The position numbers were made by a program, and so were the translations under genes. This document shows, piece by piece, positions 2,136 through 53,082 of a DNA stretch of 64,000 bases. The DNA comes from Octopus vulgaris (Eukaryota). Under the pieces are notes generated by a model. It saw nothing but the letters and a program-made list of their open reading frames with translations. It ran no database searches and was not told where the DNA came from. Each line of letters starts with the position of its first letter. The stretch's first letter is position 1. The stretch lies in contig CATOCA020000020.1 of assembly GCA_951406725.2 (NCBI GenBank), forward strand, positions 9,001 to 73,000, in the 5' to 3' direction.

Positions 2136-2354
2136 TTTGTAATGTGTGTGTGCAAAAAATGTCAATTTCAAAAGGATAGACAGTAATTTCACCCCGAATG
2201 GGGCAAAATTTCGCCCAACCGACGAGCTCCGCAAGAAGCCGGTCGGTTTGGCTACAAAAATATTAAAAAATATTCAAGCTTATTAAAAAATTTCCAATAA
2301 AATTGGCACAAAACTCACAGAGCTGATTCACGTACGTCCATCGGCGTCGGAAGG
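2136..2354 (-). promoter_or_regulatory. 5'UTR, probable internal promoter, with two stem-loops
   Basis: 219 nt between the junction and the ORF1 ATG; hairpins at 2185-2210 and 2213-2252. Promoter function is inferred from LINE biology only. Confidence 0.55.
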
Positions 2355-2369
2355 AATAATAATAATAAT
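2355..2369 (-). repeat. (ATT)5 tail/junction tract (also 8219-8233, 14089-14103, 19957-19971, 25823-25837, 31694-31708, 43429-43443; (ATT)6 at 37563-37580 and 49307-49324)
   Basis: Lies directly between the 3' end of one unit and the first base of the next. Confidence 0.92.
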
Positions 2370-2378
2370 CAATTCTTT

Positions 2379-2384
2379 TTTATT
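2379..2384 (-). terminator. Polyadenylation signal AATAAA at the element 3' end (each unit)
   Basis: Plus 'tttatt', 9 nt before the (ATT)n tract, at the end of the ~280-nt 3'UTR. Confidence 0.7.
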
Positions 2385-2648
2385 GGCCACAAGGGCTGAC
2401 ACGCATGATTACATAAAGGGACAAGACAGGACGAAAGGTTACAAAGGGTTTTGTCCGTTTGTTAAAAAATCGTGTAAAAATCTTTAAACAATGATTATAA
2501 AAAACAATGAAAAACTCCCAAAAGGGGGAGACGTCTCGAAATGTTCCCGGTGGAAAAAACCCTACAAAAGCCAACGGGAGCCTGGTCAAAAAAAGGGGGT
2601 GTAGAGAGTCCCCTTTCTTCTCCTTTTACATTACCTTTTTCTTTGAAA

Positions 2649-5600
2649 TCACAGGCGAAACCTGAGAACTGGTCCATTTATACAGGCCAGTCTCGCACAA
2701 TTCACCCACCTTTCATAAAACTTGCTATCGGACAGCACTTTCCTCTCTAACCTCATCTTCCTTTTCAAGTGAAACTTGAAAAAGTTGATGAGGCCTTGAC
2801 CAAAGAGGAAAGTGTCTGACTTTAGCCCTTTCAAACGAGTCCACCACACGACTTCTTTCGCCACAGCCACAAGGCACAAGAAAACGGCCTCGCCCTCCTT
2901 GTTAAAGGAGGTCGGCGGGGCAATCTTCACTATGGATTCGGCCGATAGTCGGATCCGTCCTACACGTGACAGTAGCTGTTCGACATAAACCCATATTTCA
3001 GCAATACTCGGGCACTGGACGAGTGCGTGCAGAACGGTTTCGTCGTCCTGGCAACACCTCGGGCAGGCCCGGCTGACGGCACTTCCGTGCCGGTAGAGTT
3101 TATCTCGAACAGGCAGAGCCCCTCGGTAGCACTGCCAGGCGAGAGACCTCTGGAAATTATCCATCGGCCCCGGCCCGAAAGTCCTCCCGAACAGACCGCT
3201 CAGTTCGTCGTCTTCAACGCCTAGAGTTTCCCCGAGAACGTCGTCGCATTTTTCCTCCACTAACCCTCTATAGAACGCTAGAGTGGAGCTGTAACCGACC
3301 GCATTGCCCGCCTGGTGGAGGGCGGAGAGGGCTTGACGGCACTCGAGGTGCCAAGCGCCCTTTCTCGGTCTACGTTTGATCCAGGTCTGCAGCTCCGTCA
3401 AAGAGACGAGCTGCGGAAAATCGCGTCTGACAAAAGACGACCACACCTGTTCACCGTCTAGGAAGCGCTTGAGATGCCGCAGCCTGAGCGCATGTCTGCG
3501 CAACAGCAACCACGGCATTCCAAGGCCTCCGTTCAGCGGTCGTTGACAGCAGATGGATCGCCTGACCAGTGGCACCTGACCCTTCCACAAAAAGTCGAAG
3601 AGCAGACGTACCAGCTTGGCCAACCAGCGGTCGGGACAAGGGACGACGGTCAAGCGGTAATAGATGACGGATGCGATGTACGCATTCGCCACCTCCGCTC
3701 GACCTTTCAGGGACAGCTTCCTCTCGGCCCTGGGTGAGACGTGCCACCCTGCTCGTCACCTCTTCCCAGTTCTTATCCACCTGGAGGTCCGGACCGAACC
3801 AGACCCCGAGCAGTTTAACGGGTCCGTCTGTCCAGCGCCCTACGACGCTGTTGGACGGCATGGGCTTGCCTCTCCAGGTGCCCAGTTGCAAGCCCACAGA
3901 CTTTTCCGCGTTAATCTTTGCCCCTGTCACCGCTTCGTACTGGTTTAGCGTCTCGCCAATCAGGCCAATGTGCCTGTGGCTCGACACCACCACGGTGACG
4001 TCGTCGGCATAAGCAGACACGCTGTTTCCGCCTCCTAGATCGCGCGGGATGCCCCTCAAAGCCTCCAACTTGCGCAGTAATGGCTCGAGAGTCAAAATGT
4101 ACAAGAGGGAGGAGAGAGGGCATCCTTGGCGGACCGAACGCGAGATGTCGAACGGTTCCGAAAGGTGACCGTTCACCCGTATCACCGAGCAGATGTTGCT
4201 GTATAAAGCAGCGATCCACCCGCGGAAGACTGGACCGAAGCCGGCTGCCTTGAGGACAGCTGCCAGGTACCGATGGTCGACCCTATCGAAGGCTTTACTC
4301 TGATCCAAGTTGATCAAAGCCCCACCCGCGCCAGCGTCGTTACCCACCCTCTCTATGATGTAGCGCATGAGATGGAGGTTGTCGTGTATCGACCTGGTCG
4401 GCACGGCGCATGTCTGCGTCCCGCCGACCAGCTTGTCCACGACAAGCGCCAATCTCTTGGCTAGCACCTTGGCCAAAATCTTCAACTCTGCATTGAGCAG
4501 AGTGATGGGCCGGAAATTCCCTATAACGTCCCCCTTGTTTGGGTCCTTCTTTAGCAAAGCCACCACCCCTCGACAGACAAAAGCAGGAATTCTCCCGTTT
4601 TGCTGCCAGTTGCAGTAGACGTTTGCCAACAGGTCCGCAAACAAGTCTGGCATTGAAAAGTAAAGCTCGTAGGGCAGACCATCCAAACCCGGCGATCTAC
4701 CTCTCGTGCAACTCTTCATCGCTTCCTGTACTTCCCAGGCAGATATCGGTCCTTCGCAGCACTCTGCCTCGCTGTCCGAGAGTTGCGGCAGTCCGTCCAG
4801 GTACACACCGAAGTCTGTACCGTTGGTGTCCGTTCCACCGCTCGTCCCAAACAGTTGAGCAAAGTGCCGCTGAAGCACCGTACACATCTGCTTCGGTTGG
4901 GTAACCTCGCGCCCGTTCTGGTCCACCAAAGACCGAATGGTTGCTCTGTTGCCTCGCTTCGCCTCCGCCACGCGGGCCCATCGAGCGGCTCTAGTCCCCT
5001 CCCCGCTTAGCGAACGTGCCTTAGCTCTGACAACGCAGCCTTCGTGTTTGGCGTCGAAGTGTTGGTCGAGGGCCAACCTTGCCGCCAACACGTCGGTCGC
5101 GATGCCAGTGTCAAGAGCCTCGTCTAGTTTCTTAACTAAATCCCGCTCTCTCTTCCTACGTTCAATAGCTAGAGTCTTACTATACCTAATCGACTCTACT
5201 CTAATTGCTCTCTTGAGGGCAAACCACCAGTTGTTGTTGATGATTGCCCCCGTGAGCGCCCGCTTAACTAGTAAACTAATCCGGTCTCTGTAAGCTTTGC
5301 ACGCCGTTAACGACGCGTTCAGCTTCCAGTAGCCGGGTCCCTGTCTATGTAGCCTATCTAAGTCGACCGTACAGATCACTAATTTGTGGTCCGTATATTC
5401 GACTAGGTGGAATTGTGGACACCCTACGCTGTCCTTATCCGCTGGCCTACAAAACACTCTATCTAAGTACGATCTAGACGACCCGATGCGGTTTGTCCAA
5501 GTCCACATTGGCACATTCGGGTTGTCTAGTCGAAACCTGTCGGACAGCTGAAAGCGGCCGAGTAGGTTGGCGAGGCTCTTGCACCCTCCCCCTCTCCTAA

Positions 5601-6078
5601 CAGACGCTCCCCTGCCCACCCGATCGAAACGTTCGTCTAAGACAGCGTTCCAATCCCCAACTAGTACTAGAGTGCGTGACGTTCCCAGGAAAACTTCCAG
5701 ACGTTTGAAATAATCCGACTGCCCTGCTCCTGTCGGAGCGTAGGCAGCCAGCAGTCTGAAAGCACCGCCGTCACTACCGTCGACGTCGAGGACCACCAAC
5801 TTACCTTCCGGATCCAAGAAGACTGTCCTTATTTTCAGGTCCAGGCCCTTCCGAAACAACACCGCAGTACCACCACCGCCCGCTCCCGGCCGACACGGAG
5901 ATAGAAATATCTCGTATCCGCCGAAAAGGGCTGCGAGTTCCTGCGGGTCGGAGAGCCTGGTTTCACTGATGGCTGCTACATCCACATCATGAAACCTCAG
6001 GTCGTTTAACAGGTGACCCTGTTTCCAAGGTGACCCGAGGCCTCTCACATTCAAGCAACCGATTCTAAGATTTGCCAT
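2649..6078 (-). pseudogene. ORF2 (APE-RT), frameshifted by a 5-bp deletion near 3730
   Basis: ctctcggccc|tgggtg here versus ctctcggcccatttctgggtg in intact copies; ORFs 3451-6078 and 2649-3692. Confidence 0.85.
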
Positions 6079-6116
6079 GTCTCAAAAGTAGGGGGAAAAA
6101 AAGGAGAAAAAAGGCT

Positions 6117-6931
6117 CTACTTACTGTTGTTGGTGGTGGGGGTGGCTCCCTTGTGCTTTTGCACGGGTGCTTCAATAATATTTTTGTAAAGTTTCTGAGA
6201 GAAACTTTTCCCTAACGATCCCACATCGTTAGGGAATATTTGTTTTATTTCATTGTACTGTTTTGTTTATTTTTATTGTGAGAATGTGTGCTGGTGGTGT
6301 GTTTGTGTAGGTATGATGAAATCTGTAATGTTTGTGCTTGTTTTGTTTTTCAAATACTCAACCAGTTCCTGGTTTCTTGTATTCACTGCTGTAATCGTGT
6401 CTGTAATTGTGTCTGTGTTTGTTTGTGTCTGTGGTAGTGGCAGTAGTGGTGTCGAAAGTGTTGTTGTTGTTGTTTGTTGTTGTGAGTGTGTGTTGTTGTT
6501 GATGTTGTTGTTGATGTTGGGAAGTACTATTTGTTCGTGCTTCCCCTGTAAATCTTTTTGTTTTTTCCTCCTTTTCTTTTTGGAGGTACTATATTCCATT
6601 CTCCTTTGTTGGAATCCGAGCTCGCACAATCCGAGATCTCTTCATCCGGCAAAGGAATGGTTGAGGGGTCTGCTTCAGTAGCAGGACGAAAAGTTTTGGT
6701 TCCACCGGTATCGGTGGTGCCGCTGCTCCTGTTACTGTTGATGTCGCTGCTGTCGACCTTCGAGGTACTGGTGTCGGTGTTGGTTTGGTGGTGGTTGTCG
6801 GTGTTGGTTTGGTGGTGGTTGTTGTTGTTGGAGGTGGTGTTGTTCGTCTTGGTGCTGGTGTTGGTGATGGTGTTGGTGGTGTGGCAGCCTTTGGTTTTTC
6901 TTGCTGTTTTTGTTGTTTCTGTTGTTGTTGC

Positions 6932-6969
<38 letters not shown>

Positions 6970-7999
6970 GCTGCTGCCTCTTGCTATACTCCTCCATTCT
7001 CTTTTTTTGAATGGGGCAGTCCCTTTTTAGGTGGCTTTCGCTACTGCAGAGGAAACATTTTGGCTTTCGCCCCTCTACAATAACATTTAGCCTGGTCCCA
7101 TCCAGCAAGATGACGAAAGTCAGGGTATGGCATTGATGTTTTCCTGCTGGATCTGTACCAGCAGTTGAATACCCATGCCTGACCAGTTCTTTTTCGTACC
7201 CTCCGAACATTCAGAATAGTGGCAGTGTCCTCTATGCCATAGAGGACAGCCGCCACTAGCCATGAGATTTTCTGTTCAGGGGGGTATTGTGCTTATGTTA
7301 TTTTTTGTACCTTACGCCCGAGGTACGTCGGGACGAGGAACAAATGTTCATTTTGCAAGGGCGAAATGGCGTTCGCCCTTGCAAGCTCCTCTGTTGGGAA
7401 GCGAACCTCCACGGTTCCAAATCGCTTCCCTCTTGTTACATAGCTCTTCTGGCCCCAAATGGGCTTCAGAGCCATCTCCAACTGTTGTGGTGTGGCGTTA
7501 AACAATCTTTTAGTTTTCTTTTCGAAGACTTTATAAAAGATTGTTCTTTTGCTTTCAATTCTTGTGTGAGTTGTTGAGGTGTGTTGAGGAAAACACTGTT
7601 CCCCTCCTTTCTCAACAAATCTTGTGCCTTTTTATGTCCTCCATTGTAATTTCTACATCTTCCGAAATTTGCTTCGCAGCAGAAGCAAAATCGTTAGAAG
7701 TTTTACAGTTTTTTGTTGGTTCTTGTCTGTGTTTGTGTCTGTTATAATTTTCTTTACCTCCCCTTCGGTACAGCATCACTTGTTGAAGGCAGAGGGGGAA
7801 ATCAAGAGTGACGTCGAACGCGACGTCCTGGCATGCATTCTCCTTTTGAACCGAGCGCGTGCTCTCCGGTTCGGAAGGAGGAGCTTTGTTGCCTTTTACG
7901 GCCTGAAATGGGTTGTACGTAACCCGTGACGTTATTTTTTGTTCTTGTAGGGGGGTGTTGCAAGAAGGAGGAAGAGCCAGCAGCTCGTTTCAGTGCCAT
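6117..7999 (-). pseudogene. ORF1 copy with many small indels
   Basis: Homologous to 256-2135; several frameshifts, possibly consensus errors. Confidence 0.75.
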
Positions 8000-8512
8000 T
8001 TTGTAATGTGTGTGTGCAAAAAATGTCAATTTCAAAAGGATAGACAGTAATTTCACCCCGAATGGGGCAAAACTTCGCCCAACCGACGAGCTCCGCAAGA
8101 AGCCGGTCGGTTTGGCTACAAAAATATTAAAAAATATTCAAACCTATTAAAAGATTTCCAATGAAATTGGTGTCAAATTCACGGAGCTGATTCACGTACG
8201 TCCATCGGCGTCGGAAGGAATAATAATAATAATCAATTCTTTTTTATTGGCCACAAGGGCTGACACGCATGATTACATAAAGGGACAAGACAGGACGAAA
8301 GGTTACAAAGGGTTTTGCCGTTTTTTAAAACATCGAGTAAAAATCTTTATAACAACTTATAAAATTCAACAATGAAAAACTCCCAAAAGGGGGAGACGTC
8401 TCGAAATGTTCCTGGTGGAAAAAACCCTACAAAAGCCAACGGGAGCCTGGTCAAAAAAGGGGGTGTAGAGAGTCCCCTTTCTTCTCCTTTTACATTACCT
8501 TTTTCTTTGAAA

Positions 8513-11500
8513 TCACAGGCGAAACCTGAGAACTGGTCCATTTATACAGGCCAGTCTCGCACAATTCACCCACCTTTCATAAAACTTGCTATCGGACAGC
8601 ACTTTCCTCTCTAACCTCATCTTCCTTTTCAAGTGAAACTTGAAAAAGTTGATGAGGCCTTGACCAAAGAGGAAAGTGTCTGACTTTAGCCCTTTCAAAC
8701 GAGTCCACCACACGACTTCTTTCGCCACAGCCACAAGGCACAAGAAAACGGCCTCGCCCTCCTTGTTAAAGGAGGTCGGCGGGGCAATCTTCACTATGGA
8801 TTCGGCCGATAGTCGGATCCGTCCTACACGTGACAGTAGCTGTTCGACATAAACCCATATTTCAGCAATACTCGGGCACTGGACGAGTGCGTGCAGAACG
8901 GTTTCGTCGTCCTGGCAACACCTCGGGCAGGCCCGGCTGACGGCACTTCCGTGCCGGTAGAGTTTATCTCGAACAGGCAGAGCCCCTCGGTAGCACTGCC
9001 AGGCGAGAGACCTCTGGAAATTATCCATCGGCCCCGGCCCGAAAGTCCTCCCGAACAGACCGCTCAGTTCGTCGTCTTCAACGCCTAGAGTTTCCCCGAG
9101 AACGTCGTCGCATTTTTCCTCCACTAACCCTCTATAGAACGCTAGAGTGGAGCTGTAACCGACCGCATTGCCCGCCTGGTGGAGGGCGGAGAGGGCTTGA
9201 CGGCACTCGAGGTGCCAAGCGCCCTTTCTCGGTCTACGTTTGATCCAGGTCTGCAGCTCCGTCAAAGAGACGAGCTGCGGAAAATCGCGTCTGACAAAAG
9301 ACGACCACACCTGTTCACCGTCTAGGAAGCGCTTGAGATGCCGCAGCCTGAGCGCATGTCTGCGCAACAGCAACCACGGCATTCCAAGGCCTCCGTTCAG
9401 CGGTCGTTGACAGCAGATGGATCGCCTGACCAGTGGCACCTGACCCTTCCACAAAAAGTCGAAGAGCAGGTGTACCAGCTTGGCCAACCAGCGGTCGGGA
9501 CAAGGGACGACGGTCAAGCGGTAATAGATGACGGATGCGATGTACGCATTCGCCACCTCCGCTCGACCTTTCAGGGACAGCTTCCTCTCGGCCCATTTCT
9601 GGGTGAGACGTGCCACCCTGCTCGTCACCTCTTCCCAGTTCTTATCCACCTGGAGGTCCGGACCGAACCAGACCCCGAGCAGTTTAACGGGTCCGTCTGT
9701 CCAGCGCCCTACGACGCTGTTGGACGGCATGGGCTTGCCTCTCCAGGTGCCCAGTTGCAAGCCCACAGACTTTTCCGCGTTAATCTTTGCCCCTGTCACC
9801 GCTTCGTACTGGTTTAGCGTCTCGCCAATCAGGCCAATGTGCCTGTGGCTCGACACCACCACGGTGACGTCGTCGGCATAAGCAGACACGCTGTTTCCGC
9901 CTCCTAGATCGCGCGGGATGCCCCTCAAAGCCTCCAACTTGCGCAGTAATGGCTCGAGAGTCAAAATGTACAAGAGGGAGGAGAGAGGGCATCCTTGGCG
10001 GACCGAACGCGAGATGTCGAACGGTTCCGAAAGGTGACCGTTCACCCGTATCACCGAGCAGATGTTGCTGTATAAAGCAGCGATCCACCCGCGGAAGACT
10101 GGACCGAAGCCGGCTGCCTTGAGGACAGCTGCCAGGTACCGATGGTCGACCCTATCGAAGGCTTTACTCTGATCCAAGTTGATCAAAGCCCCACCCGCGC
10201 CAGCGTCGTTACCCACCCTCTCTATGATGTAGCGCATGAGATGGAGGTTGTCGTGTATCGACCTGGTCGGCACGGCGCATGTCTGCGTCCCGCCGACCAG
10301 CTTGTCCACGACAAGCGCCAATCTCTTGGCTAGCACCTTGGCCAAAATCTTCAACTCTGCATTGAGCAGAGTGATGGGCCGGAAATTGCCTATAACGTCC
10401 CCCTTGTTTGGGTCCTTCTTTAGCAAAGCCACCACCCCTCGACAGACAAAAGCAGGAATTCTCCCGTTTTGCTGCCAGTTGCAGTAGACGTTTGCCAACA
10501 GGTCCGCAAACAAGTCTGGCATTGAAAAGTAAAGCTCGTAGGGCAGACCATCCAAACCCGGCGATCTACCTCTCGTGCAACTCTTCATCGCTTCCTGTAC
10601 TTCCCAGGCAGATATCGGTCCTTCGCAGCACTCTGCCTCGCTGTCCGAGAGTTGCGGCAGTCCGTCCAGGTACACACCGAAGTCTGTACCGTTGGTGTCC
10701 GTTCCACCGCTCGTCCCAAACAGTTGAGCAAAGTGCCGCTGAAGTACCGTACACATCTGCTTCGGTTGGGTAACCTCGCGCCCGTTCTGGTCCACCAAAG
10801 ACCGAATGGTTGCTCTGTTGCCTCGCTTCGCCTCCGCCACGCGGGCCCATCGAGCGGCTCTAGTCCCCTCCCCGCTTAGCGAACGTGCCTTAGCTCTGAC
10901 AACGCAGCCTTCGTGTTTGGCGTCGAAGTGTTGGTCGAGGGCCAACCTTGCCGCCAACACGTCGGTCGCGATGCCAGTGTCAAGAGCCTCGTCTAGTTTC
11001 TTAACTAAATCCCGCTCTCTCTTCCTACGTTCAATAGCTAGAGTCTTACTATACCTAATCGACTCTACTCTAATTGCTCTCTTGAGGGCAAACCACCAGT
11101 TGTTGTTGATGATTGCCCCCGTGAGCGCCCGCTTAACTAGTAAACTAATCCGGTCTCTGTAAGCTTTGCACGCCGTTAACGACGCGTTCAGCTTCCAGTA
11201 GCCGGGTCCCTGTCTATGTAGCCTATCTAAGTCGACCGTACAGATCACTAATTTGTGGTCCGTATATTCGACTAGGTGGAATTGTGGACACCCTACGCTG
11301 TCCTTATCCGCTGGCCTACAAAACACTCTATCTAAGTACGATCTAGACGACCCGATGCGGTTTGTCCAAGTCCACATTGGCACATTCGGGTTGTCTAGTC
11401 GAAACCTGTCGGACAGCTGAAAGCGGCCGAGTAGGTTGGCGAGGCTCTTGCACCCACCCCCTCTCCTAACAGACGCTCCCCTGCCCACCCGATCGAAACG

Positions 11501-11947
11501 TTCGTCTAAGACAGCGTTCCAATCCCCAACTAGTACTAGAGTGCGTGACGTTCCCAGGAAAACTTCCAGACGTTTGAAATAATCCGACTGCCCTGCTCCT
11601 GTCGGAGCGTAGGCAGCCAGCAGTCTGAAAGCACCGCCGTCACTACCGTCCACGTCGAGGACCACCAACTTACCTTCCGGATCCAAGAAGACTGTTCTTA
11701 TTTTCAGGTCCAGGCCCTTCCGAAACAACACCGCAGTACCACCACCGCCCGCTCCCGGCCGACACGGAGATAGAAATATCTCGTATCCGCCGAAAAGGGC
11801 TGCGAGTTCCTGCGGGTCGGAGAGCCTGGTTTCACTGATGGCTGCTATATCCACATCATGAAACCTCAGGTCGTTTAACAGGTGACCCTGTTTCCAAGGT
11901 GACCCGAGGCCTCTCACATTCAAGCAACCGATTCTAAGATTTGCCAT
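8513..11947 (-). CDS. ORF2: AP-like endonuclease + reverse transcriptase + C-terminal Cys/His (zf-RVT-like) domain, 1144 aa, intact
   Basis: APE motifs CLNVRGL, AISET, AAYAP, VGDWN, YLDR and TDH. RT motifs SPGLDG, FRPITLLN, LDQSKAFDRVDH, VRQGCPLS, YADD and LLGV. GPGYWKLN and GGLG motifs are typical of Tx1/L1-group ORF2. C-terminal CPRC...H...C. Confidence 0.97.
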   Translation of the reverse strand: MANLRIGCLNVRGLGSPWKQGHLLNDLRFHDVDIAAISETRLSDPQELAALFGGYEIFLSPCRPGAGGGGTAVLFRKGLDLKIRTVFLDPEGKLVVLDVDGSDGGAFRLLAAYAPTGAGQSDYFKRLEVFLGTSRTLVLVGDWNAVLDERFDRVGRGASVRRGGGCKSLANLLGRFQLSDRFRLDNPNVPMWTWTNRIGSSRSYLDRVFCRPADKDSVGCPQFHLVEYTDHKLVICTVDLDRLHRQGPGYWKLNASLTACKAYRDRISLLVKRALTGAIINNNWWFALKRAIRVESIRYSKTLAIERRKRERDLVKKLDEALDTGIATDVLAARLALDQHFDAKHEGCVVRAKARSLSGEGTRAARWARVAEAKRGNRATIRSLVDQNGREVTQPKQMCTVLQRHFAQLFGTSGGTDTNGTDFGVYLDGLPQLSDSEAECCEGPISAWEVQEAMKSCTRGRSPGLDGLPYELYFSMPDLFADLLANVYCNWQQNGRIPAFVCRGVVALLKKDPNKGDVIGNFRPITLLNAELKILAKVLAKRLALVVDKLVGGTQTCAVPTRSIHDNLHLMRYIIERVGNDAGAGGALINLDQSKAFDRVDHRYLAAVLKAAGFGPVFRGWIAALYSNICSVIRVNGHLSEPFDISRSVRQGCPLSSLLYILTLEPLLRKLEALRGIPRDLGGGNSVSAYADDVTVVVSSHRHIGLIGETLNQYEAVTGAKINAEKSVGLQLGTWRGKPMPSNSVVGRWTDGPVKLLGVWFGPDLQVDKNWEEVTSRVARLTQKWAERKLSLKGRAEVANAYIASVIYYRLTVVPCPDRWLAKLVHLLFDFLWKGQVPLVRRSICCQRPLNGGLGMPWLLLRRHALRLRHLKRFLDGEQVWSSFVRRDFPQLVSLTELQTWIKRRPRKGAWHLECRQALSALHQAGNAVGYSSTLAFYRGLVEEKCDDVLGETLGVEDDELSGLFGRTFGPGPMDNFQRSLAWQCYRGALPVRDKLYRHGSAVSRACPRCCQDDETVLHALVQCPSIAEIWVYVEQLLSRVGRIRLSAESIVKIAPPTSFNKEGEAVFLCLVAVAKEVVWWTRLKGLKSDTFLFGQGLINFFKFHLKRKMRLERKVLSDSKFYERWVNCARLACINGPVLRFRL

Positions 11948-11986
11948 GTCTCAAGAATTAGGGAAAAAAAAAGGAGAAAAAAGGCT

Positions 11987-13869
11987 CTACTTACTGTTGT
12001 TGGTGGTGGGGGTGGCTCCCTTGTGCTTTTGCACGGGTGCTTCAATAATATTTTTGTAAAGTTTCTGAGAGAAACTTTTCCCTAACGATCCCACATCGTT
12101 AGGGAATATTTGTTTTATTTCATTGTACACTGTTTTGTTTATTTTTATTGTGAGAATGTGTGCTGGTGGTGTGTTGTGTGTAGGTATTATGAAATCTGTA
12201 ATGTTTGTGCTTGTTTTGTTTTTCAAATACTCAACCAGTTCCTGGTTTCTTGTATTCACTGCTGTAATCGTGTCTGTAATTGTGTCTGTGTTTGTTTGTG
12301 TCTGTGGTAGTGGCAGTAGTGGTGTCGAAAGTGTTGTTGTTGTTGTTTGTTGTTGTGAGTGTGTGTTGTTGTTGATGTTGTTGTTGATGTTGGGAAGTAC
12401 TATTTGTTCGTGCTTCCCCTGTAAAACTTTTTGTTTTTTCCTCCTTTTCTTTTTTGGAGGTACTATATTCCATTCTCCTTTGTTGGAATCCGAGCTCGCA
12501 CAATCCGAGATCTCTTCATCCGGCAAAGGAATGGTTGAGGGGTCTGCTTCAGTAGCAGGACGAAAAGTTTTAGGTTCCGCCGGTATCGGTGGTGCCGCTG
12601 CTCCTGTTACTGTTGATGTCGCTGCTGTCGACCTTCGAGGTACTGGTGTCGGTGTTGGTTTGGTGGTGGTTGTCGGTGTTGGTTTGGTGGTGGTTGTTGT
12701 TGTTGGAGGTGGTGTTGTTCGTCTTGGTGCTGGTGTTGGTGATGGTGTTGGTGGTGTGGCAGCCTTTGGTTTTTCTTGCTGTTTTTGTTGTTTCTGTTGT
12801 TGTTGCTTGTTGTTGTTGTTGTTGTTGTTGTTGTTGCTGCTGCCTCTTGCTATACTCCTCCATTCTCTTTTTTTGAATGGGGCAGTCCCTTTTTAGGTGG
12901 CTTTCGCTACTGCAGAGGAAACATTTTGGCTTTCGCCCCTCTACAATAACATTTAGCCTGGTCCCATCCAGCAAGATGACAAAGTCAGGTATGGCATTGA
13001 TGTTTTCCTGCTGGATCTGTACCAGCAGTTGAATACCCATGCCTGACCAGTTCTTTTCTCGTACCCTCCGAACATTCAGAATAGTGGCAGTGTCCTCTAT
13101 GCCATAGAGGACAGCCGCCACTAGCCATGAGATTTTCTGTTCGGGGGGTATTGTGCTTATGGTTATTTTTTGTACCTTACGCCCGAGGTACGTCGGGACG
13201 AGGAACAAATGTTCATTTTGCAAGGGCGAAATGGCGTTTGCCCTTGCAAGCTCCTCTGTTGGGAAGCGAACCTCCACGGTTCCAAATCGCTTCCCTCTTG
13301 TCACATAGCTCTTCTGGCCCCAAATGGGCTTCAGAGCCATCTCCAACTGTTGTGGTGTGGCGTTAAACAATCTTTTAGTTTTCTTTTCGAAGACTTTATA
13401 AAAGATTGTTCTTTTGCTTGTTTCTTGTGTGAGTTGTTGAGGTGTGTTGAGGAAAACACTGTTCCCCTCCTTTCTCAACAAATCTTGTGCCATTTTTATG
13501 TCCTCCATTGTAATTTCTACATCTTCCGAAATTTGCTTCGCAGCAGAAGCAAAATCGTTAGAAGCTTTTACAGTTTTTTGTTGGTTCTTGTCTGTGTTTG
13601 TGTCTGTTATAATTTTCTTTACCTCCCCCTTCGGTACAGCATCACTTGTTGAAGGCAGAGGGGGGAAATCAAGAGTGACGTCGAACGCGACGTCCTGGCA
13701 TGCATTCTCCTTTTGAACCGAGCGCGTGCTCTCCGGTTCGGAAGGAGGAGCTTTGTTGCCTTTTACGGCCTGAAATGGGTTGTACGTAACCCGTGACGTT
13801 ATTTTTTTTGTTCTTGTAGGGGGGTGTTGCAAGAAGGAGGGAAGAGCCAGCAGCTCGTTTTAGTGCCAT
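11987..13869 (-). CDS. ORF1 (frameshifts near the N-terminus and in the polyQ tract)
   Basis: ORFs 12570-13832 and 11987-12526; CCHC knuckle. Confidence 0.82.
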
Positions 13870-14383
13870 TTTGTAATGTGTGTGTGCAAAAAATGTCAAT
13901 TTCAAAAGGATAGACAGTAATTTCACCCCGAATGGGGCAAAATTTCGCCCAACCGACGAGCTCCGCAAGAAGCCGGTCGGTTTGGCTACAAAAATATTAA
14001 AAAATATTCAAGCTTATTAAAAAATTTCCAACAAAATTGGCACAAAACTCACAGAGCTGATTCACGTACGTCCATCGGCGTCGGAAGGAATAATAATAAT
14101 AATCAATTCTTTTTTATTGGCCACAAGGGCTGACACGCATGATTACATAAAGGGACAAGACAGGACGAAAGGTTACAAAGGGTTTTGCCGTTTTTTAAAA
14201 ACATCGAGTAAAAATCTTTATAACAACTTATAAAATTCAACAATGAAAAACTCCCAAAAGGGGGAGACGTCTCGAAAGGTTCCTGGTGGAAAAAACCCTA
14301 CAAAAGCCAACGGGAGCCTGGTCAAAAAAGGGGGTGTAGAGAGTCCCCTTTCTTCTCCTTTTACATTACCTTTTTCTTTGAAA

Positions 14384-17300
14384 TCACAGGCGAAACCTGA
14401 GAACTGGTCCATTTATACAGGCCAGTCTCGCACAATTCACCCACCTTTCATAAAACTTGCTATCGGACAGCACTTTCCTCTCTAACCTCATCTTCCTTTT
14501 CAAGTGAAACTTGAAAAAGTTGATGAGGCCTTGACCAAAGAGGAAAGTGTCTGACTTTAGCCCTTTCAAACGAGTCCACCACACGACTTCTTTCGCCACA
14601 GCCACAAGGCACAAGAAAACGGCCTCGCCCTCCTTGTTAAAGGAGGTCGGCGGGGCAATCTTCACTATGGATTCGGCCGATAGTCGGATCCGTCCTACAC
14701 GTGACAGTAGCTGTTCGACATAAACCCATATTTCAGCAATACTCGGGCACTGGACGAGTGCGTGCAGAACGGTTTCGTCGTCCTGGCAACACCTCGGGCA
14801 GGCCCGGCTGACGGCACTTCCGTGCCGGTAGAGTTTATCTCGAACAGGCAGAGCCCCTCGGTAGCACTGCCAGGCGAGAGACCTCTGGAAATTATCCATC
14901 GGCCCCGGCCCGAAAGTCCTCCCGAACAGACCGCTCAGTTCGTCGTCTTCAACGCCTAGAGTTTCCCCGAGAACGTCGTCGCATTTTTCCTCCACTAACC
15001 CTCTATAGAACGCTAGAGTGGAGCTGTAACCGACCGCATTGCCCGCCTGGTGGAGGGCGGAGAGGGCTTGACGGCACTCGAGGTGCCAAGCGCCCTTTCT
15101 CGGTCTACGTTTGATCCAGGTCTGCAGCTCCGTCAAAGAGACGAGCTGCGGAAAATCGCGTCTGACAAAAGACGACCACACCTGTTCACCGTCTAGGAAG
15201 CGCTTGAGATGCCGCAGCCTGAGCGCATGTCTGCGCAACAGCAACCACGGCATTCCAAGGCCTCCGTTCAGCGGTCGTTGACAGCAGATGGATCGCCTGA
15301 CCAGTGGCACCTGACCCTTCCACAAAAAGTCGAAGAGCAGGCGTACCAGCTTGGCCAACCAGCGGTCGGGACAAGGGACGACGGTCAAGCGGTAATAGAT
15401 GACGGATGCGATGTACGCATTCGCCACCTCCGCTCGACCTTTCAGGGACAGCTTCCTCTCGGCCCATTTCTGGGTGAGACGTGCCACCCTGCTCGTCACC
15501 TCTTCCCAGTTCTTATCCACCTGGAGGTCCGGACCGAACCAGACCCCGAGCAGTTTAACGGGTCCGTCTGTCCAGCGCCCTACGACGCTGTTGGACGGCA
15601 TGGGCTTGCCTCTCCAGGTGCCCAGTTGCAAGCCCACAGACTTTTCCGCGTTAATCTTTGCCCCTGTCACCGCTTCGTACTGGTTTAGCGTCTCGCCAAT
15701 CAGGCCAATGTGCCTGTGGCTCGACACCACCACGGTGACGTCGTCGGCATAAGCAGACACGCTGTTTCCGCCTCCTAGATCGCGCGGGATGCCCCTCAAA
15801 GCCTCCAACTTGCGCAGTAATGGCTCGAGAGTCAAAATGTACAAGAGGGAGGAGAGAGGGCATCCTTGGCGGACCGAACGCGAGATGTCGAACGGTTCCG
15901 AAAGGTGACCGTTCACCCGTATCACCGAGCAGATGTTGCTGTATAAAGCAGCGATCCACCCGCGGAAGACTGGACCGAAGCCGGCTGCCTTGAGGACAGC
16001 TGCCAGGTACCGATGGTCGACCCTATCGAAGGCTTTACTCTGATCCAAGTTGATCAAAGCCCCACCCGCGCCAGCGTCGTTACCCACCCTCTCTATGATG
16101 TAGCGCATGAGATGGAGGTTGTCGTGTATCGACCTGGTCGGCACGGCGCATGTCTGCGTCCCGCCGACCAGCTTGTCCACGACAAGCGCCAATCTCTTGG
16201 CTAGCACCTTGGCCAAAATCTTCAACTCTGCATTGAGCAGAGTGATGGGCCGGAAATTGCCTATAACGTCCCCCTTGTTTGGGTCCTTCTTTAGCAAAGC
16301 CACCACCCCTCGACAGACAAAAGCAGGAATTCTCCCGTTTTGCTGCCAGTTGCAGTAGACGTTTGCCAACAGGTCCGCAAACAAGTCTGGCATTGAAAAG
16401 TAAAGCTCGTAGGGCAGACCATCCAAACCCGGCGATCTACCTCTCGTGCAACTCTTCATCGCTTCCTGTACTTCCCAGGCAGATATCGGTCCTTCGCAGC
16501 ACTCTGCCTCGCTGTCCGAGAGTTGCGGCAGTCCGTCCAGGTACACACCGAAGTCTGTACCGTTGGTGTCCGTTCCACCGCTCGTCCCAAACAGTTGAGC
16601 AAAGTGCCGCTGAAGTACCGTACACATCTGCTTCGGTTGGGTAACCTCGCGCCCGTTCTGGTCCACCAAAGACCGAATGGTTGCTCTGTTGCCTCGCTTC
16701 GCCTCCGCCACGCGGGCCCATCGAGCGGCTCTAGTCCCCTCCCCGCTTAGCGAACGTGCCTTAGCTCTGACAACGCAGCCTTCGTGTTTGGCGTCGAAGT
16801 GTTGGTCGAGGGCCAACCTTGCCGCCAACACGTCGGTCGCGATGCCAGTGTCAAGAGCCTCGTCTAGTTTCTTAACTAAATCCCGCTCTCTCTTCCTACG
16901 TTCAATAGCTAGAGTCTTACTATACCTAATCGACTCTACTCTAATTGCTCTCTTGAGGGCAAACCACCAGTTGTTGTTGATGATTGCCCCCGTGAGCGCC
17001 CGCTTAACTAGTAAACTAATCCGGTCTCTGTAAGCTTTGCACGCCGTTAACGACGCGTTCAGCTTCCAGTAGCCGGGTCCCTGTCTATGTAGCCTATCTA
17101 AGTCGACCGTACAGATCACTAATTTGTGGTCCGTATATTCGACTAGGTGGAATTGTGGACACCCTACGCTGTCCTTATCCGCTGGCCTACAAAACACTCT
17201 ATCTAAGTACGATCTAGACGACCCGATGCGGTTTGTCCAAGTCCACATTGGCACATTCGGGTTGTCTAGTCGAAACCTGTCGGACAGCTGAAAGCGGCCG

Positions 17301-17817
17301 AGTAGGTTGGCGAGGCTCTTGCACCCCCCCCTCTCCTAACAGACGCTCCCCTGCCCACCCGATCGAAACGTTCGTCTAAGACAGCGTTCCAATCCCCAAC
17401 TAGTACTAGAGTGCGTGACGTTCCCAGGAAAACTTCCAGACGTTTGAAATAATCCGACTGCCCTGCTCCTGTCGGAGCGTAGGCAGCCAGCAGTCTGAAA
17501 GCACCGCCGTCACTACCGTCCACGTCGAGGACCACCAACTTACCTTCCGGATCCAAGAAGACTGTTCTTATTTTCAGGTCCAGGCCCTTCCGAAACAACA
17601 CCGCAGTACCACCACCGCCCGCTCCCGGCCGACACGGAGATAGAAATATCTCGTATCCGCCGAAAAGGGCTGCGAGTTCCTGCGGGTCGGAGAGCCTGGT
17701 TTCACTGATGGCTGCTACATCCACATCATGAAACCTCAGGTCGTTTAACAGGTGACCCTGTTTCCAAGGTGACCCGAGGCCTCTCACATTCAAGCAACCG
17801 ATTCTAAGATTTGCCAT
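14384..17817 (-). CDS. ORF2, one 1-bp frameshift in a C homopolymer at ~17325
   Basis: ORFs 17266-17817 and 14384-17254; otherwise near-identical to the intact copies. Confidence 0.85.
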
Positions 17818-17856
17818 GTCTCAAGAATTAGGGAAAAAAAAAGGAGAAAAAAGGCT

Positions 17857-19737
17857 CTACTTACTGTTGTTGGTGGTGGGGGTGGCTCCCTTGTGCTTTT
17901 GCACGGGTGCTTCAATAATATTTTTGTAAAGTTTCTGAGAGAAACTTTTCCCTAACGATCCCACATCGTTAGGGAATATTTGTTTTATTTCATTGTACAC
18001 TGTTTTGTTTATTTTTATTGTGAGAATGTGTGCTGGTGGTGTGTTGTGTGTAGGTATTATGAAATCTGTAATGTTTGTGCTTGTTTTGTTTTTCAAATAC
18101 TCAACCAGTTCCTGGTTTCTTGTATTCACTGCTGTAATCGTGTCTGTAATTGTGTCTGTGTTTGTTTGTGTCTGTGGTAGTGGCAGTAGTGGTGTCGAAA
18201 GTGTTGTTGTTGTTGTTTGTTGTTGTGAGTGTGTGTTGTTGTTGATGTTGTTGTTGATGTTGGGAAGTACTATTTGTTCGTGCTTCCCCTGTAAAACTTT
18301 TTGTTTTTTCCTCCTTTTCTTTTTTGGAGGTACTATATTCCATTCTCCTTTGTTGGAATCCGAGCTCGCACAATCCGAGATCTCTTCATCCGGCAAAGGA
18401 ATGGTTGAGGGGTCTGCTTCAGTAGCAGGACGAAAAGTTTTAGGTTCCGCCGGTATCGGTGGTGCCGCTGCTCCTGTTACTGTTGATGTCGCTGCTGTCG
18501 ACCTTCGAGGTACTGGTGTCGGTGTTGGTTTGGTGGTGGTTGTCGGTGTTGGTTTGGTGGTGGTTGTTGTTGTTGGAGGTGGTGTTGTTCGTCTTGGTGC
18601 TGGTGTTGGTGATGGTGTTGGTGGTGTGGCAGCCTTTGGTTTTTCTTGCTGTTTTTGTTGTTTCTGTTGTTGTTGCTTGTGTTGTTGTTGTTGTTGTTGT
18701 TGTTGCTGCTGCCTCTTGCTATACTCCTCCATTCTCTTTTTTTGAATGGGGCAGTCCCTTTTTAGGTGGCTTTCGCTACTGCAGAGGAAACATTTTGGCT
18801 TTCGCCCCTCTACAATAACATTTAGCCTGGTCCCATCCAGCAAGATGACAAAGTCAGGTATGGCATTGATGTTTTCCTGCTGGATCTGTACCAGCAGTTG
18901 AATACCCATGCCTGACCAGTTCTTTTCTCGTACCCTCCGAACATTCAGAATAGTGGCAGTGTCCTCTATGCCATAGAGGACAGCCGCCACTAGCCATGAG
19001 ATTTTCTGTTCGGGGGTATTGTGCTTATGGTTATTTTTTGTACCTTACGCCCGAGGTACGTCGGGACGAGGAACAAATGTTCATTTTGCAAGGGCGAAAT
19101 GGCGTTTGCCCTTGCAAGCTCCTCTGTTGGGAAGCGAACCTCCACGGTTCCAAATCGCTTCCCTCTTGTCACATAGCTCTTCTGGCCCCAAATGGGCTTC
19201 AGAGCCATCTCCAACTGTTGTGGTGTGGCGTTAAACAATCTTTTAGTTTTCTTTTCGAAGACTTTATAAAAGATTGTTCTTTTGCTTGTTTCTTGTGTGA
19301 GTTGTTGAGGTGTGTTGAGGAAAACACTGTTCCCCTCCTTTCTCAACAAATCTTGTGCCATTTTTATGTCCTCCATTGTAATTTCTACATCTTCCGAAAT
19401 TTGCTTCGCAGCAGAAGCAAAATCGTTAGAAGCTTTTACAGTTTTTTGTTGGTTCTTGTCTGTGTTTGTGTCTGTTATAATTTTCTTTACCTCCCCCTTC
19501 GGTACAGCATCACTTGTTGAAGGCAGAGGGGGAAATCAAGAGTGACGTCGAACGCGACGTCCTGGCATGCATTCTCCTTTTGAACCGAGCGCGTGCTCTC
19601 CGGTTCGGAAGGAGGAGCTTTGTTGCCTTTTACGGCCTGAAATGGGTTGTACGTAACCCGTGACGTTATTTTTTTTTGTTCTTGTAGGGGGGTGTTGCAA
19701 GAAGGAGGGAAGAGCCAGCAGCTCGTTTTAGTGCCAT
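17857..19737 (-). CDS. ORF1 (homopolymer frameshifts)
   Basis: ORFs 18990-19376 and 17857-18990. Confidence 0.82.
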
Positions 19738-20249
19738 TTTGTAATGTGTGTGTGCAAAAAATGTCAATTTCAAAAGGATAGACAGTAATTTCACCCCGAA
19801 TGGGGCAAAATTTCGCCCAACCGACGAGCTCCGCAAGAAGCCGGTCGGTTTGGCTACAAAAATATTAAAAAATATTCAAGCTTATTAAAAAATTTCCAAC
19901 AAAATTGGCACAAAACTCACAGAGCTGATTCACGTACGTCCATCGGCGTCGGAAGGAATAATAATAATAATCAATTCTTTTTTATTGGCCACAAGGGCTG
20001 ACACGCATGATTACATAAAGGGACAAGACAGGACGAAAGGTTACAAAGGGTTTTGTCCGTTTGTTAAAAAATCCGTGTAAAAATCTTTAAAACAATGATT
20101 ATTAAAACAATGAAAAACTCCCAAAAGGGGGAGACGTCTCGAAATGTTCCCGGTGGAAAAAACCCTACAAAAGCCAACGGGAGCCTGGTCAAAAAGGGGG
20201 TGTAGAGAGTCCCCTTTCTTCTCCTTTTACATTACCTTTTTCTTTGAAA

Positions 20250-23200
20250 TCACAGGCGAAACCTGAGAACTGGTCCATTTATACAGGCCAGTCTCGCACA
20301 ATTCACCCACCTTTCATAAAACTTGCTATCGGACAGCACTTTCCTCTCTAACCTCATCTTCCTTTTCAAGTGAAACTTGAAAAAGTTGATGAGGCCTTGA
20401 CCAAAGAGGAAAGTGTCTGACTTTAGCCCTTTCAAACGAGTCCACCACACGACTTCTTTCGCCACAGCCACAAGGCACAAGAAAACGGCCTCGCCCTCCT
20501 TGTTAAAGGAGGTCGGCGGGGCAATCTTCACTATGGATTCGGCCGATAGTCGGATCCGTCCTACACGTGACAGTAGCTGTTCGACATAAACCCATATTTC
20601 AGCAATACTCGGGCACTGGACGAGTGCGTGCAGAACGGTTTCGTCGTCCTGGCAACACCTCGGGCAGGCCCGGCTGACGGCACTTCCGTGCCGGTAGAGT
20701 TTATCTCGAACAGGCAGAGCCCCTCGGTAGCACTGCCAGGCGAGAGACCTCTGGAAATTATCCATCGGCCCCGGCCCGAAAGTCCTCCCGAACAGACCGC
20801 TCAGTTCGTCGTCTTCAACGCCTAGAGTTTCCCCGAGAACGTCGTCGCATTTTTCCTCCACTAACCCTCTATAGAACGCTAGAGTGGAGCTGTAACCGAC
20901 CGCATTGCCCGCCTGGTGGAGGGCGGAGAGGGCTTGACGGCACTCGAGGTGCCAAGCGCCCTTTCTCGGTCTACGTTTGATCCAGGTCTGCAGCTCCGTC
21001 AAAGAGACGAGCTGCGGAAAATCGCGTCTGACAAAAGACGACCACACCTGTTCACCGTCTAGGAAGCGCTTGAGATGCCGCAGCCTGAGCGCATGTCTGC
21101 GCAACAGCAACCACGGCATTCCAAGGCCTCCGTTCAGCGGTCGTTGACAGCAGATGGATCGCCTGACCAGTGGCACCTGACCCTTCCACAAAAAGTCGAA
21201 GAGCAGGTGTACCAGCTTGGCCAACCAGCGGTCGGGACAAGGGACGACGGTCAAGCGGTAATAGATGACGGATGCGATGTACGCATTCGCCACCTCCGCT
21301 CGACCTTTCAGGGACAGCTTCCTCTCGGCCCATTTCTGGGTGAGACGTGCCACCCTGCTCGTCACCTCTTCCCAGTTCTTATCCACCTGGAGGTCCGGAC
21401 CGAACCAGACCCCGAGCAGTTTAACGGGTCCGTCTGTCCAGCGCCCTACGACGCTGTTGGACGGCATGGGCTTGCCTCTCCAGGTGCCCAGTTGCAAGCC
21501 CACAGACTTTTCCGCGTTAATCTTTGCCCCTGTCACCGCTTCGTACTGGTTTAGCGTCTCGCCAATCAGGCCAATGTGCCTGTGGCTCGACACCACCACG
21601 GTGACGTCGTCGGCATAAGCAGACACGCTGTTTCCGCCTCCTAGATCGCGCGGGATGCCCCTCAAAGCCTCCAACTTGCGCAGTAATGGCTCGAGAGTCA
21701 AAATGTACAAGAGGGAGGAGAGAGGGCATCCTTGGCGGACCGAACGCGAGATGTCGAACGGTTCCGAAAGGTGACCGTTCACCCGTATCACCGAGCAGAT
21801 GTTGCTGTATAAAGCAGCGATCCACCCGCGGAAGACTGGACCGAAGCCGGCTGCCTTGAGGACAGCTGCCAGGTACCGATGGTCGACCCTATCGAAGGCT
21901 TTACTCTGATCCAAGTTGATCAAAGCCCCACCCGCGCCAGCGTCGTTACCCACCCTCTCTATGATGTAGCGCATGAGATGGAGGTTGTCGTGTATCGACC
22001 TGGTCGGCACGGCGCATGTCTGCGTCCCGCCGACCAGCTTGTCCACGACAAGCGCCAATCTCTTGGCTAGCACCTTGGCCAAAATCTTCAACTCTGCATT
22101 GAGCAGAGTGATGGGCCGGAAATTGCCTATAACGTCCCCCTTGTTTGGGTCCTTCTTTAGCAAAGCCACCACCCCTCGACAGACAAAAGCAGGAATTCTC
22201 CCGTTTTGCTGCCAGTTGCAGTAGACGTTTGCCAACAGGTCCGCAAACAAGTCTGGCATTGAAAAGTAAAGCTCGTAGGGCAGACCATCCAAACCCGGCG
22301 ATCTACCTCTCGTGCAACTCTTCATCGCTTCCTGTACTTCCCAGGCAGATATCGGTCCTTCGCAGCACTCTGCCTCGCTGTCCGAGAGTTGCGGCAGTCC
22401 GTCCAGGTACACACCGAAGTCTGTACCGTTGGTGTCCGTTCCACCGCTCGTCCCAAACAGTTGAGCAAAGTGCCGCTGAAGTACCGTACACATCTGCTTC
22501 GGTTGGGTAACCTCGCGCCCGTTCTGGTCCACCAAAGACCGAATGGTTGCTCTGTTGCCTCGCTTCGCCTCCGCCACGCGGGCCCATCGAGCGGCTCTAG
22601 TCCCCTCCCCGCTTAGCGAACGTGCCTTAGCTCTGACAACGCAGCCTTCGTGTTTGGCGTCGAAGTGTTGGTCGAGGGCCAACCTTGCCGCCAACACGTC
22701 GGTCGCGATGCCAGTGTCAAGAGCCTCGTCTAGTTTCTTAACTAAATCCCGCTCTCTCTTCCTACGTTCAATAGCTAGAGTCTTACTATACCTAATCGAC
22801 TCTACTCTAATTGCTCTCTTGAGGGCAAACCACCAGTTGTTGTTGATGATTGCCCCCGTGAGCGCCCGCTTAACTAGTAAACTAATCCGGTCTCTGTAAG
22901 CTTTGCACGCCGTTAACGACGCGTTCAGCTTCCAGTAGCCGGGTCCCTGTCTATGTAGCCTATCTAAGTCGACCGTACAGATCACTAATTTGTGGTCCGT
23001 ATATTCGACTAGGTGGAATTGTGGACACCCTACGCTGTCCTTATCCGCTGGCCTACAAAACACTCTATCTAAGTACGATCTAGACGACCCGATGCGGTTT
23101 GTCCAAGTCCACATTGGCACATTCGGGTTGTCTAGTCGAAACCTGTCGGACAGCTGAAAGCGGCCGAGTAGGTTGGCGAGGCTCTTGCACCCACCCCCTC

Positions 23201-23684
23201 TCCTAACAGACGCTCCCCTGCCCACCCGATCGAAACGTTCGTCTAAGACAGCGTTCCAATCCCCAACTAGTACTAGAGTGCGTGACGTTCCCAGGAAAAC
23301 TTCCAGACGTTTGAAATAATCCGACTGCCCTGCTCCTGTCGGAGCGTAGGCAGCCAGCAGTCTGAAAGCACCGCCGTCACTACCGTCCACGTCGAGGACC
23401 ACCAACTTACCTTCCGGATCCAAGAAGACTGTTCTTATTTTCAGGTCCAGGCCCTTCCGAAACAACACCGCAGTACCACCACCGCCCGCTCCCGGCCGAC
23501 ACGGAGATAGAAATATCTCGTATCCGCCGAAAAGGGCTGCGAGTTCCTGCGGGTCGGAGAGCCTGGTTTCACTGATGGCTGCTATATCCACATCATGAAA
23601 CCTCAGGTCGTTTAACAGGTGACCCTGTTTCCAAGGTGACCCGAGGCCTCTCACATTCAAGCAACCGATTCTAAGATTTGCCAT
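20250..23684 (-). CDS. ORF2 APE-RT, 1144 aa, intact
   Basis: Same protein as 8513-11947. Confidence 0.97.
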   Translation of the reverse strand: MANLRIGCLNVRGLGSPWKQGHLLNDLRFHDVDIAAISETRLSDPQELAALFGGYEIFLSPCRPGAGGGGTAVLFRKGLDLKIRTVFLDPEGKLVVLDVDGSDGGAFRLLAAYAPTGAGQSDYFKRLEVFLGTSRTLVLVGDWNAVLDERFDRVGRGASVRRGGGCKSLANLLGRFQLSDRFRLDNPNVPMWTWTNRIGSSRSYLDRVFCRPADKDSVGCPQFHLVEYTDHKLVICTVDLDRLHRQGPGYWKLNASLTACKAYRDRISLLVKRALTGAIINNNWWFALKRAIRVESIRYSKTLAIERRKRERDLVKKLDEALDTGIATDVLAARLALDQHFDAKHEGCVVRAKARSLSGEGTRAARWARVAEAKRGNRATIRSLVDQNGREVTQPKQMCTVLQRHFAQLFGTSGGTDTNGTDFGVYLDGLPQLSDSEAECCEGPISAWEVQEAMKSCTRGRSPGLDGLPYELYFSMPDLFADLLANVYCNWQQNGRIPAFVCRGVVALLKKDPNKGDVIGNFRPITLLNAELKILAKVLAKRLALVVDKLVGGTQTCAVPTRSIHDNLHLMRYIIERVGNDAGAGGALINLDQSKAFDRVDHRYLAAVLKAAGFGPVFRGWIAALYSNICSVIRVNGHLSEPFDISRSVRQGCPLSSLLYILTLEPLLRKLEALRGIPRDLGGGNSVSAYADDVTVVVSSHRHIGLIGETLNQYEAVTGAKINAEKSVGLQLGTWRGKPMPSNSVVGRWTDGPVKLLGVWFGPDLQVDKNWEEVTSRVARLTQKWAERKLSLKGRAEVANAYIASVIYYRLTVVPCPDRWLAKLVHLLFDFLWKGQVPLVRRSICCQRPLNGGLGMPWLLLRRHALRLRHLKRFLDGEQVWSSFVRRDFPQLVSLTELQTWIKRRPRKGAWHLECRQALSALHQAGNAVGYSSTLAFYRGLVEEKCDDVLGETLGVEDDELSGLFGRTFGPGPMDNFQRSLAWQCYRGALPVRDKLYRHGSAVSRACPRCCQDDETVLHALVQCPSIAEIWVYVEQLLSRVGRIRLSAESIVKIAPPTSFNKEGEAVFLCLVAVAKEVVWWTRLKGLKSDTFLFGQGLINFFKFHLKRKMRLERKVLSDSKFYERWVNCARLACINGPVLRFRL

Positions 23685-23723
23685 GTCTCAAGAATTAGGG
23701 GAAAAAAAAGGAGAAAAAAGGCT

Positions 23724-29552: not shown

Positions 29553-29590
29553 GTCTCAAGAATTAGGGAAAAAAAAGGAGAAAAAAGGCT

Positions 29591-30412: not shown

Positions 30413-30443
<31 letters not shown>

Positions 30444-35427: not shown

Positions 35428-35465
35428 GTCTCAAGAATTAGGGAAAAAAAAGGAGAAAAAAGGCT

Positions 35466-41293: not shown

Positions 41294-41331
41294 GTCTCAA
41301 GAATTAGGGAAAAAAAAGGAGAAAAAAGGCT

Positions 41332-47163: not shown

Positions 47164-47202
47164 GTCTCAAAATTAGGGGAAAAAAAAAGGAGAAAAAAGG
47201 CT

Positions 47203-48024: not shown

Positions 48025-48055
<31 letters not shown>

Positions 48056-53041: not shown

Positions 53042-53082
53042 GTCTCAAAATTAGGGGGAAAAAAAGGAGAAAAAAAAAGGCT

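Follow-up and report, generated by a model that had tools for sequence, protein, structure and literature searches.

An (ATT)n-resident LINE of Octopus vulgaris, probably Tx1-type, whose tandem arrays appear to grow in front of older intact heads

Introduction

A contig of the Octopus vulgaris genome of which nearly the whole extent is made up by tandemly arranged copies of one retrotransposon raises the question of how such an array is built, i.e., what the short (ATT)n tract between neighbouring copies represents and at which side of an existing copy a new one is added. The window, meaning the whole stretch of 64,000 nucleotides analysed here (G000:C50:9001-73000), lies on this 73-kb contig, C50, of a 2.8-Gb genome. 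In a sequence-only reading of the window it was suggested that the (ATT)5-6 tract is encoded tail and target at once, and that an ATT-specific cut within the tail of the previous copy lets the array grow at its 3' side. The junctions of the window, the flanks of dispersed copies, the age order within arrays and the frequency of tandems were considered, each of which bears on a different part of this suggestion.

Results

Array and junctions in the window

The following features describe the array and one of its junctions:

2355..53969, minus strand: head-to-tail array of eight complete units and the 3' part of a ninth
2355, 8219, 14089, 19957, 25823, 31694 and 43429, minus strand: (ATT)5 junction tracts
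37563 and 49307, minus strand: (ATT)6 junction tracts
53970..58750: garbled centre, apparently a mixture of a plus-strand copy and the 5' part of the minus-strand copy
58752..64000, plus strand: (ATT)6 junction tract at 58752, followed by a copy that runs to the contig end
2370..2384, minus strand: 3'-terminal bases of the upstream copy (AATAAA at 2379-2384, AAA, GAATTG at 2370-2375)
2355..2369, minus strand: (ATT)5 junction tract, read as the TSD separating two copies
2345..2354, minus strand: head of the downstream copy with its first bases CCTTCCGACG
2185..2252, minus strand: two conserved hairpins in the 5'UTR, located between about +103 and +170 (approximate coordinates, transferred by offset from an aligned unit)

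The ten invariant junctions described earlier were recovered when the sequence was read again directly, nine of them on the minus strand and one on the plus strand, all with the order AATAAA-A3-GAATTG-(ATT)n-CCTTCCGACG except for an A4 variant which is confined to the plus-strand junction. Neither poly(A) nor direct repeats other than (ATT)n were found at the junctions of the window. The units measure 5864-5878 bp and are 98.7-99.0% identical to the unit 2355-8218, and the minus-strand array extends leftward beyond position 2355 of the window as far as the contig start. The same first bases also start dispersed full-length copies, and 29 tandems outside the window possess junction tracts of 3-12 units with a peak at 5-6 (14/29), next to one imperfect tract of 84 nt. 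In the first of the two 5'UTR hairpins, two pairs show changes in both partners in 3 of 10 sequences, which is weak evidence as these sequences are related to each other; both hairpins are kept across subfamilies (alignment A2 columns 127-194), with some compensatory changes.

The centre of the window (53970-58750) matches the unit to only about 78%, with the 5' part of a minus-strand copy interleaved in register, and is likely to be a consensus blend and as such an assembly artefact. As the plus-strand junction borders this garbled stretch, the inversion itself is unreliable. An origin of the plus arm as a fold-back mirror was considered and rejected, since the plus copy is without the variants of the unit it would mirror and is the sole carrier of A4. 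The garbled centre also holds (AAT)12 at 56336 and (CA)n at 56514, which may be flank DNA, and a comparable garbled copy (L079) is found upstream of the array on C4.

Coding content and classification

Two coding regions were assigned on the minus strand:

8513..11950, minus strand: ORF2, 1145 aa, with APE (11-232), RT (515-760) and zf-RVT (981-1032)
17857..19535, minus strand: ORF1 region, split by frameshift in the window

The ORF2 frame is intact in five units of the window, and its closest solved structure is that of human L1 ORF2p (176 bits, as compared to 82 bits for R2). With its N-terminal APE and its RT the element is a non-LTR retrotransposon of the L1/Tx1 group. When compared with a fish protein carrying PF23057/PF23058, two domains which we take to mark Tx1 ORF1, ORF2 scores 378 bits versus 176 bits for human L1; on these proxy scores the element is probably a young APE-RT LINE family of Tx1 type.

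For ORF1, a frame of 610 aa is present in the dispersed copy L071, and a search for zf-CCHC gave one weak knuckle with E-values of 0.05-0.085, i.e., below the cut-off. ORF1 is split in the window and in 8 of 9 copies checked, the youngest included, whereas an intact ORF2 is frequent. These splits are likely to be caused by homopolymer errors, a genuine frameshift in ORF1 being a conceivable alternative. Five copies (L069, L094, L132, L140, L253) combine an intact head and tail with large internal deletions and possibly are non-autonomous derivatives. A metagenome scan carried out with a relative returned zero loci, protein-cluster look-ups yielded names without information, and Rfam, applied to one junction, returned two weak matches far under the gathering score and no ribozyme.

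Residence in (ATT)n microsatellites

The exact 3' end of the young family has 153 matches genome-wide, and flanks were examined in 37 stretches from the top matches and in 60 from the pattern list, whereby 11 nt or more in phase with ATT at the 5' junction were counted as (ATT)n flank. From the truncated set, 7 of 50 rows had been removed beforehand (L079 as garbled, L137 as mis-called, L167 and L141 for an unclear boundary, L171 twice as palindrome and L086 as tandem). Such a flank was found in 33 of 35 full-length dispersed copies, none of which is preceded by another copy, and in 22 of 43 truncated ones, compared with a background of 0.67%, determined at 280,000 positions from 14 arbitrarily picked stretches of 10 kb each. 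In all 33 positive full-length copies the upstream run is at least 18 nt long, and downstream of the copies ATT always lies on the sense strand. Furthermore, eight copies (L092, L095, L136, L146, L147, L156, L164, L188) have empty sites in paralogues of the host repeat, where an ATT tract lies between identical flanks; in this comparison L155 and L161 turned out to be self-matches and L178 gave no information. Both the flanks and the empty paralogous sites bear out the (ATT)n target specificity that the sequence-only reading had proposed, including its expectation that solitary copies carry (ATT)n on either side. They support that the copies lie inside (ATT)n microsatellites, with (ATT)n as putative target. 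For LINEs to be called microsatellite-specific, the accessible part of one source gives a threshold of >20% (PMC4494074), and here one repeat class flanks independent copies, truncated ones included. The older subfamily has 161 exact 3' ends, the first 30 of which were read and proved to be similarly flanked, and 22 of 30 of its truncated or undecided ends could be placed, many of them with the same ATT flanks (both informal counts).

In the 21 of 43 truncated copies that are without at least 11 nt of ATT upstream, the missing tract could reflect target-site deletion. Two of the 35 full-length copies (L066 and L093) have (CTT)n instead of (ATT)n upstream. Their heads start with CTTTCC, and the repeat, (CTT)15-32, is in phase with the first CTT of the head. 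Reiterative synthesis at the 5' junction is a possible origin, and the tract fits a 5' leader, stutter or a compound repeat (2/262 free tracts).

The junction tract as target-site duplication

Four copies which reside in imperfect repeats have an odd base on both sides and hence document duplications of 18-21 nt (L067 18 nt, L154 20 nt, L164 18 nt, L184 21 nt). Counted from GAATTG, this marker base is found at position 3 in L184 and at position 6 in L154, so that the RNA supplied at most 2-5 nt there. In six further copies (L070, L087, L135, L136, L138, L172) odd bases near the junction are unduplicated. Of the double role that had been ascribed to the tract, that of a TSD is upheld by the marker duplications, whereas that of a substantial encoded tail is not, given the maximum of 2-5 nt. 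The (ATT)5-6 which separates stacked copies is likely a TSD of 15-21 nt, with a few tail bases at most.

The upstream tract is longer in full-length than in truncated copies (median 39 nt versus 11 nt), while the downstream one is not (24 versus 24); homology joining, a 5' leader or stutter may explain the longer upstream tracts. None of the listed records that contain the sequence is registered as RNA. Contigs from seven sequencing runs guessed to be RNA gave no record bridging a junction under a 31-base rule and, among the matches listed, no loose end in poly(A). On C1 (G000:C1:202325101 and 202336942) an imperfect (ATT/GTT) tract of 69 nt precedes copy 1 and again copy 3, which would reflect either a TSD of exceptional length or template jumping. 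Duplication of a dimer at this locus (C1:202.3 Mb) was rejected, as copies 1-2 differ from copies 3-4.

Age order within arrays

As a measure of age, substitutions to the youngest type were counted across 3.3 kb of ORF2, a distance which dates the subfamily and not strictly the insertion. Among pairs of neighbours the upstream copy was younger in 16, older in 2 and of tied age in 16; of the 18 resolvable pairs, 16 thus have the younger copy upstream, and in 14 of 15 arrays it comes first. Three upstream copies were left out of this count, namely the garbled copy on C4, a copy with a deletion on C13 and, on C14, a rearranged copy of older type, the last of which lies upstream of a young head (C14:24.18 Mb) and is contrary to the rule. 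The order indicates that new copies are likely to enter the tract before the old head and not the old tail, and hence lends no support to the idea that the tail of the previous copy is cut. In mixed tandems the ORF2 sequences of the copies diverge by as much as about 5%, with private changes of about 1.5% in the older one; such tandems consequently document sequential insertions, beyond simple duplication.

Within the window 7 of 10 pairs are tied in age. Across the 3.3 kb the ten units differ from the youngest type by 0-7 substitutions (by zero in three units) and display eight patterns at nine shared sites, the commonest of which is also found in copies on other contigs. These patterns fit repeated insertion from few sources, with unequal exchange or polishing noise as alternative.

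Excess of tandems in front of heads

The genome holds at least 211,572 (ATT)5 starts that follow C or G, and by extrapolation from a density of 40 per 140 kb, provided that this is representative, the tracts would number about 800,000. Taking the number of heads as 500 at most (an assumption; 159 candidates are listed), uniform tract use would place 0.06-0.24% of the insertions in front of a head. Of the 100 3' ends listed, 98 were read, and 27 of these 98 adjoin the intact head of another copy (16 of 81 loci). A 3' end directly precedes 23 of the 55 young heads that were read, as compared to 0 of 43 truncated 5' ends. With no more than 500 heads assumed, tandems are therefore about 80- to 400-fold commoner than predicted by uniform tract use. 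As more than 211,000 ATT tracts are free, ATT specificity alone predicts hardly any tandems, and the earlier derivation of array growth from this specificity alone is at variance with the excess.

The boundary sequence between tract and head was considered next to the tract itself. Sites of the form (ATT)5CYTTC number 697 genome-wide, of which 40 consecutive ones on C1 were read, known heads of the family being left out. None of the 40 had a copy of the young or the older subfamily in front, which renders the five-base boundary insufficient; 29 lie in two other repeat families, two are old heads and two carry the 3' end of a more distant relative. Old-type heads have a young copy in front in 3 of 7 cases. 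Tail-to-truncated junctions do occur, as in L086 (unplaced contig) and L236 (older subfamily). CpG beside solitary insertions was not raised (medians 7 versus 8), hence promoters do not show up as a general target.

Two abundant repeats (L267-L305), which account for 21 and 8 of the 40 sites, terminate in (AAT)n on the opposite strand and occupy the same ATT niche in opposite orientation; their translated pieces resemble the C-terminal nuclease region of R4/Dong-type elements. In front of one such repeat (2/21) lie L284 and L302, relatives at a greater distance that end in AATAAA-(ATT)n and may represent an ATT-targeting lineage of deeper origin, possibly one that prefers certain boundaries. 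Inverted pairs of short 3' ends were encountered as well (L171 at C9:111.57 Mb and L192 at C13:22.91 Mb).

Discussion

The findings are best explained by a young APE-RT LINE which resides in (ATT)n, whose junction tracts are TSDs and whose arrays grow before older intact heads, a reading to which we assign a probability of roughly 0.8. The mechanism suggested assumes that TPRT is primed by a nick in the (AAT)n strand, whereby the RNA would encode few tail bases at most. The second cut would occur 15-21 nt further on, at the 3' edge of the tract or at the head, and a cut at this boundary would keep the long part of the tract upstream and available to the next insertion. New full-length copies would in this way insert directly before the intact head of an older copy. 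Some of the near-identical neighbours in the youngest arrays may stem from unequal exchange.

For the attraction of the machinery by heads, a cause can be suggested tentatively. The heads are rich in pyrimidines, in which they resemble a TCT initiator. It is possible, at a little less than even odds, that heads attract the machinery as open or factor-bound promoters, and among the candidate causes this idea is favoured, as for TRE5-A in the accessible part of PMC5911963. Placed just short of an even chance as well is a two-part address, in which the endonuclease would read (ATT)n and the machinery would home to the heads of the element's own copies, either via the promoter or via the 5'UTR hairpins. 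If true, each full-length insertion would become the hottest landing pad of the element, giving age-ordered chains at internal sites, much like telomeric retrotransposons minus the telomere.

That the long near-identical arrays, the window included, arose mainly by amplification at the DNA level (unequal exchange or circles) after a seed dimer, or by expansion in the assembly, is rather unlikely. The window units, being 0-7 substitutions from the youngest type, their uniform junctions and the garbled centre in C50 are in line with this explanation, as are the intact heads of 23 of 24 resolvable upstream members (hand count), and the R1 array, for which double insertion followed by unequal exchange is described in the accessible part of PMC5932611, constitutes a precedent. 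However, mixed-subfamily tandems are left unexplained by it, and eight patterns at nine sites, the commonest shared across contigs, argue against it, with the reservation that polishing could scramble patterns.

Guidance by read-through RNA is to be judged unlikely. Here, transcripts of array copies would continue across (AUU)n as far as the following head and pair with sites at which (ATT)n meets a head, so that priming is steered to heads and arrays become autocatalytic. This would account for the polarity and for junctions of 5-6 units, and 13 of 17 of the youngest chromosomal copies do lie before another copy (hand count). Yet old heads, whose first 20 nt are different, are targeted as often (3/7) as young ones (23/55), which weighs against a long RNA guide, and short 3' transductions of a head were absent from the loci read.

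The encoded tail with growth at the 3' side, from which the analysis started, is largely refuted as main route and very unlikely. Its ATT specificity is real, the two reverse pairs and the C14 case agree with it, the tied pairs being unorderable, and the subfamily ends GAATTG and GAATTA include one ATT-like unit; nevertheless the markers cap the coded tail at 2-5 nt, the polarity is opposite by 16 to 2, and more than 211,000 free tracts are in competition with the tail. Finally, the most improbable view that target specificity is absent and that the flanks derive from a tail of encoded (ATT)n combined with slippage or with a leader of (AUU)n at the 5' end is contradicted by truncated copies, which are incapable of a 5' leader but have the tract in 22 of 43 cases, by empty paralogues containing the tract and by duplicated markers, while the longer upstream tracts of full-length copies (median 39 versus 11 nt) and the in-phase (CTT)n of L066 and L093 indicate that leader or stutter may contribute.

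The stacking of copies before heads thus being the preferred reading, it remains to compare the element with known systems. R4/Dong elements possess a C-terminal restriction-like nuclease in place of an APE. The octopus ORF2, with its N-terminal APE (11-232) and its place in the L1 group, consequently falls outside Dong/R4, yet targets the same repeat class as Dong, which the accessible parts of the sources describe as TAA-repeat specific (PMC3812793) and class as Dong-R4 (PMC13282606). Microsatellite-specific Tx1 families are Kibi in (TC)n, Koshi in (TTC)n and the crocodilian families in (TTCC)n/(TTTC)n, as far as the available text of PMC4494074 and PMC3812793 goes. Like the octopus element these are APE-RT LINEs using one microsatellite class, (ATT)n being the class in question here instead of (TC)n or (TTC)n; polar stacking before own heads is strong in the octopus element and unmentioned for these families in the parts of the sources at hand. 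An annotation of the octopus genome comprises 13 recently active L1-Tx1 and five Dong-R4 families, with targets unstated in its accessible part (PMC13282606), and PMC7265360 and PMC3747384 contributed nothing specific. In the literature passages covered by the search, neither an (ATT)n-specific Tx1 family nor head-directed stacking was encountered. An (ATT)n-specific APE element would widen the target repertoire of Tx1 and be convergent on the niche of Dong.

Head-to-tail copies with a single TSD in between, as in the octopus array, are shared with the R1 tandem array and TE dimers, reported to arise by double insertion (PMC5932611, accessible part), and with tandem SINEU-3, reported to be arranged around a TSD (PMC4494074, accessible part). 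The R1 site is, however, one position in rDNA units, whereas the octopus element has more than 211,000 equivalent tracts, so that, unlike for R1, re-use of a site needs an extra cause. Drosophila non-LTR tandems are mostly tail-to-truncated according to the part of PMC5932611 available, while those of octopus are tail-to-intact head. LINE arrays on own copies are likewise described, within the accessible text, for Cnl1 of Cryptococcus (PMC9942834) and for Drosophila HeT-A/TART (PMC5932611). Cnl1 nests within itself near telomeres (PMC9942834, same limitation), in contrast to which octopus copies are left intact, depend on an ATT tract and have their junctions at heads and at internal positions, e.g., at 93.8 of 176.7 Mb on C4. 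As a model for attraction by heads, TRE5-A of Dictyostelium may serve, an APE element of the L1 group which is directed to a position upstream of a promoter via contact of ORF1p with TFIIIB (PMC5911963, accessible part); the octopus site is instead defined by sequence, and the orientation is the same. Sequence specificity and re-use of a site, which are confounded in rDNA-type elements, become separable in the octopus element, whose 80- to 400-fold excess before own heads, in the presence of hundreds of thousands of equal tracts, points to a second layer of targeting. Its arrays offer a measurable path from a LINE to a satellite-like array, in which age-ordered chains record the succession of subfamilies.
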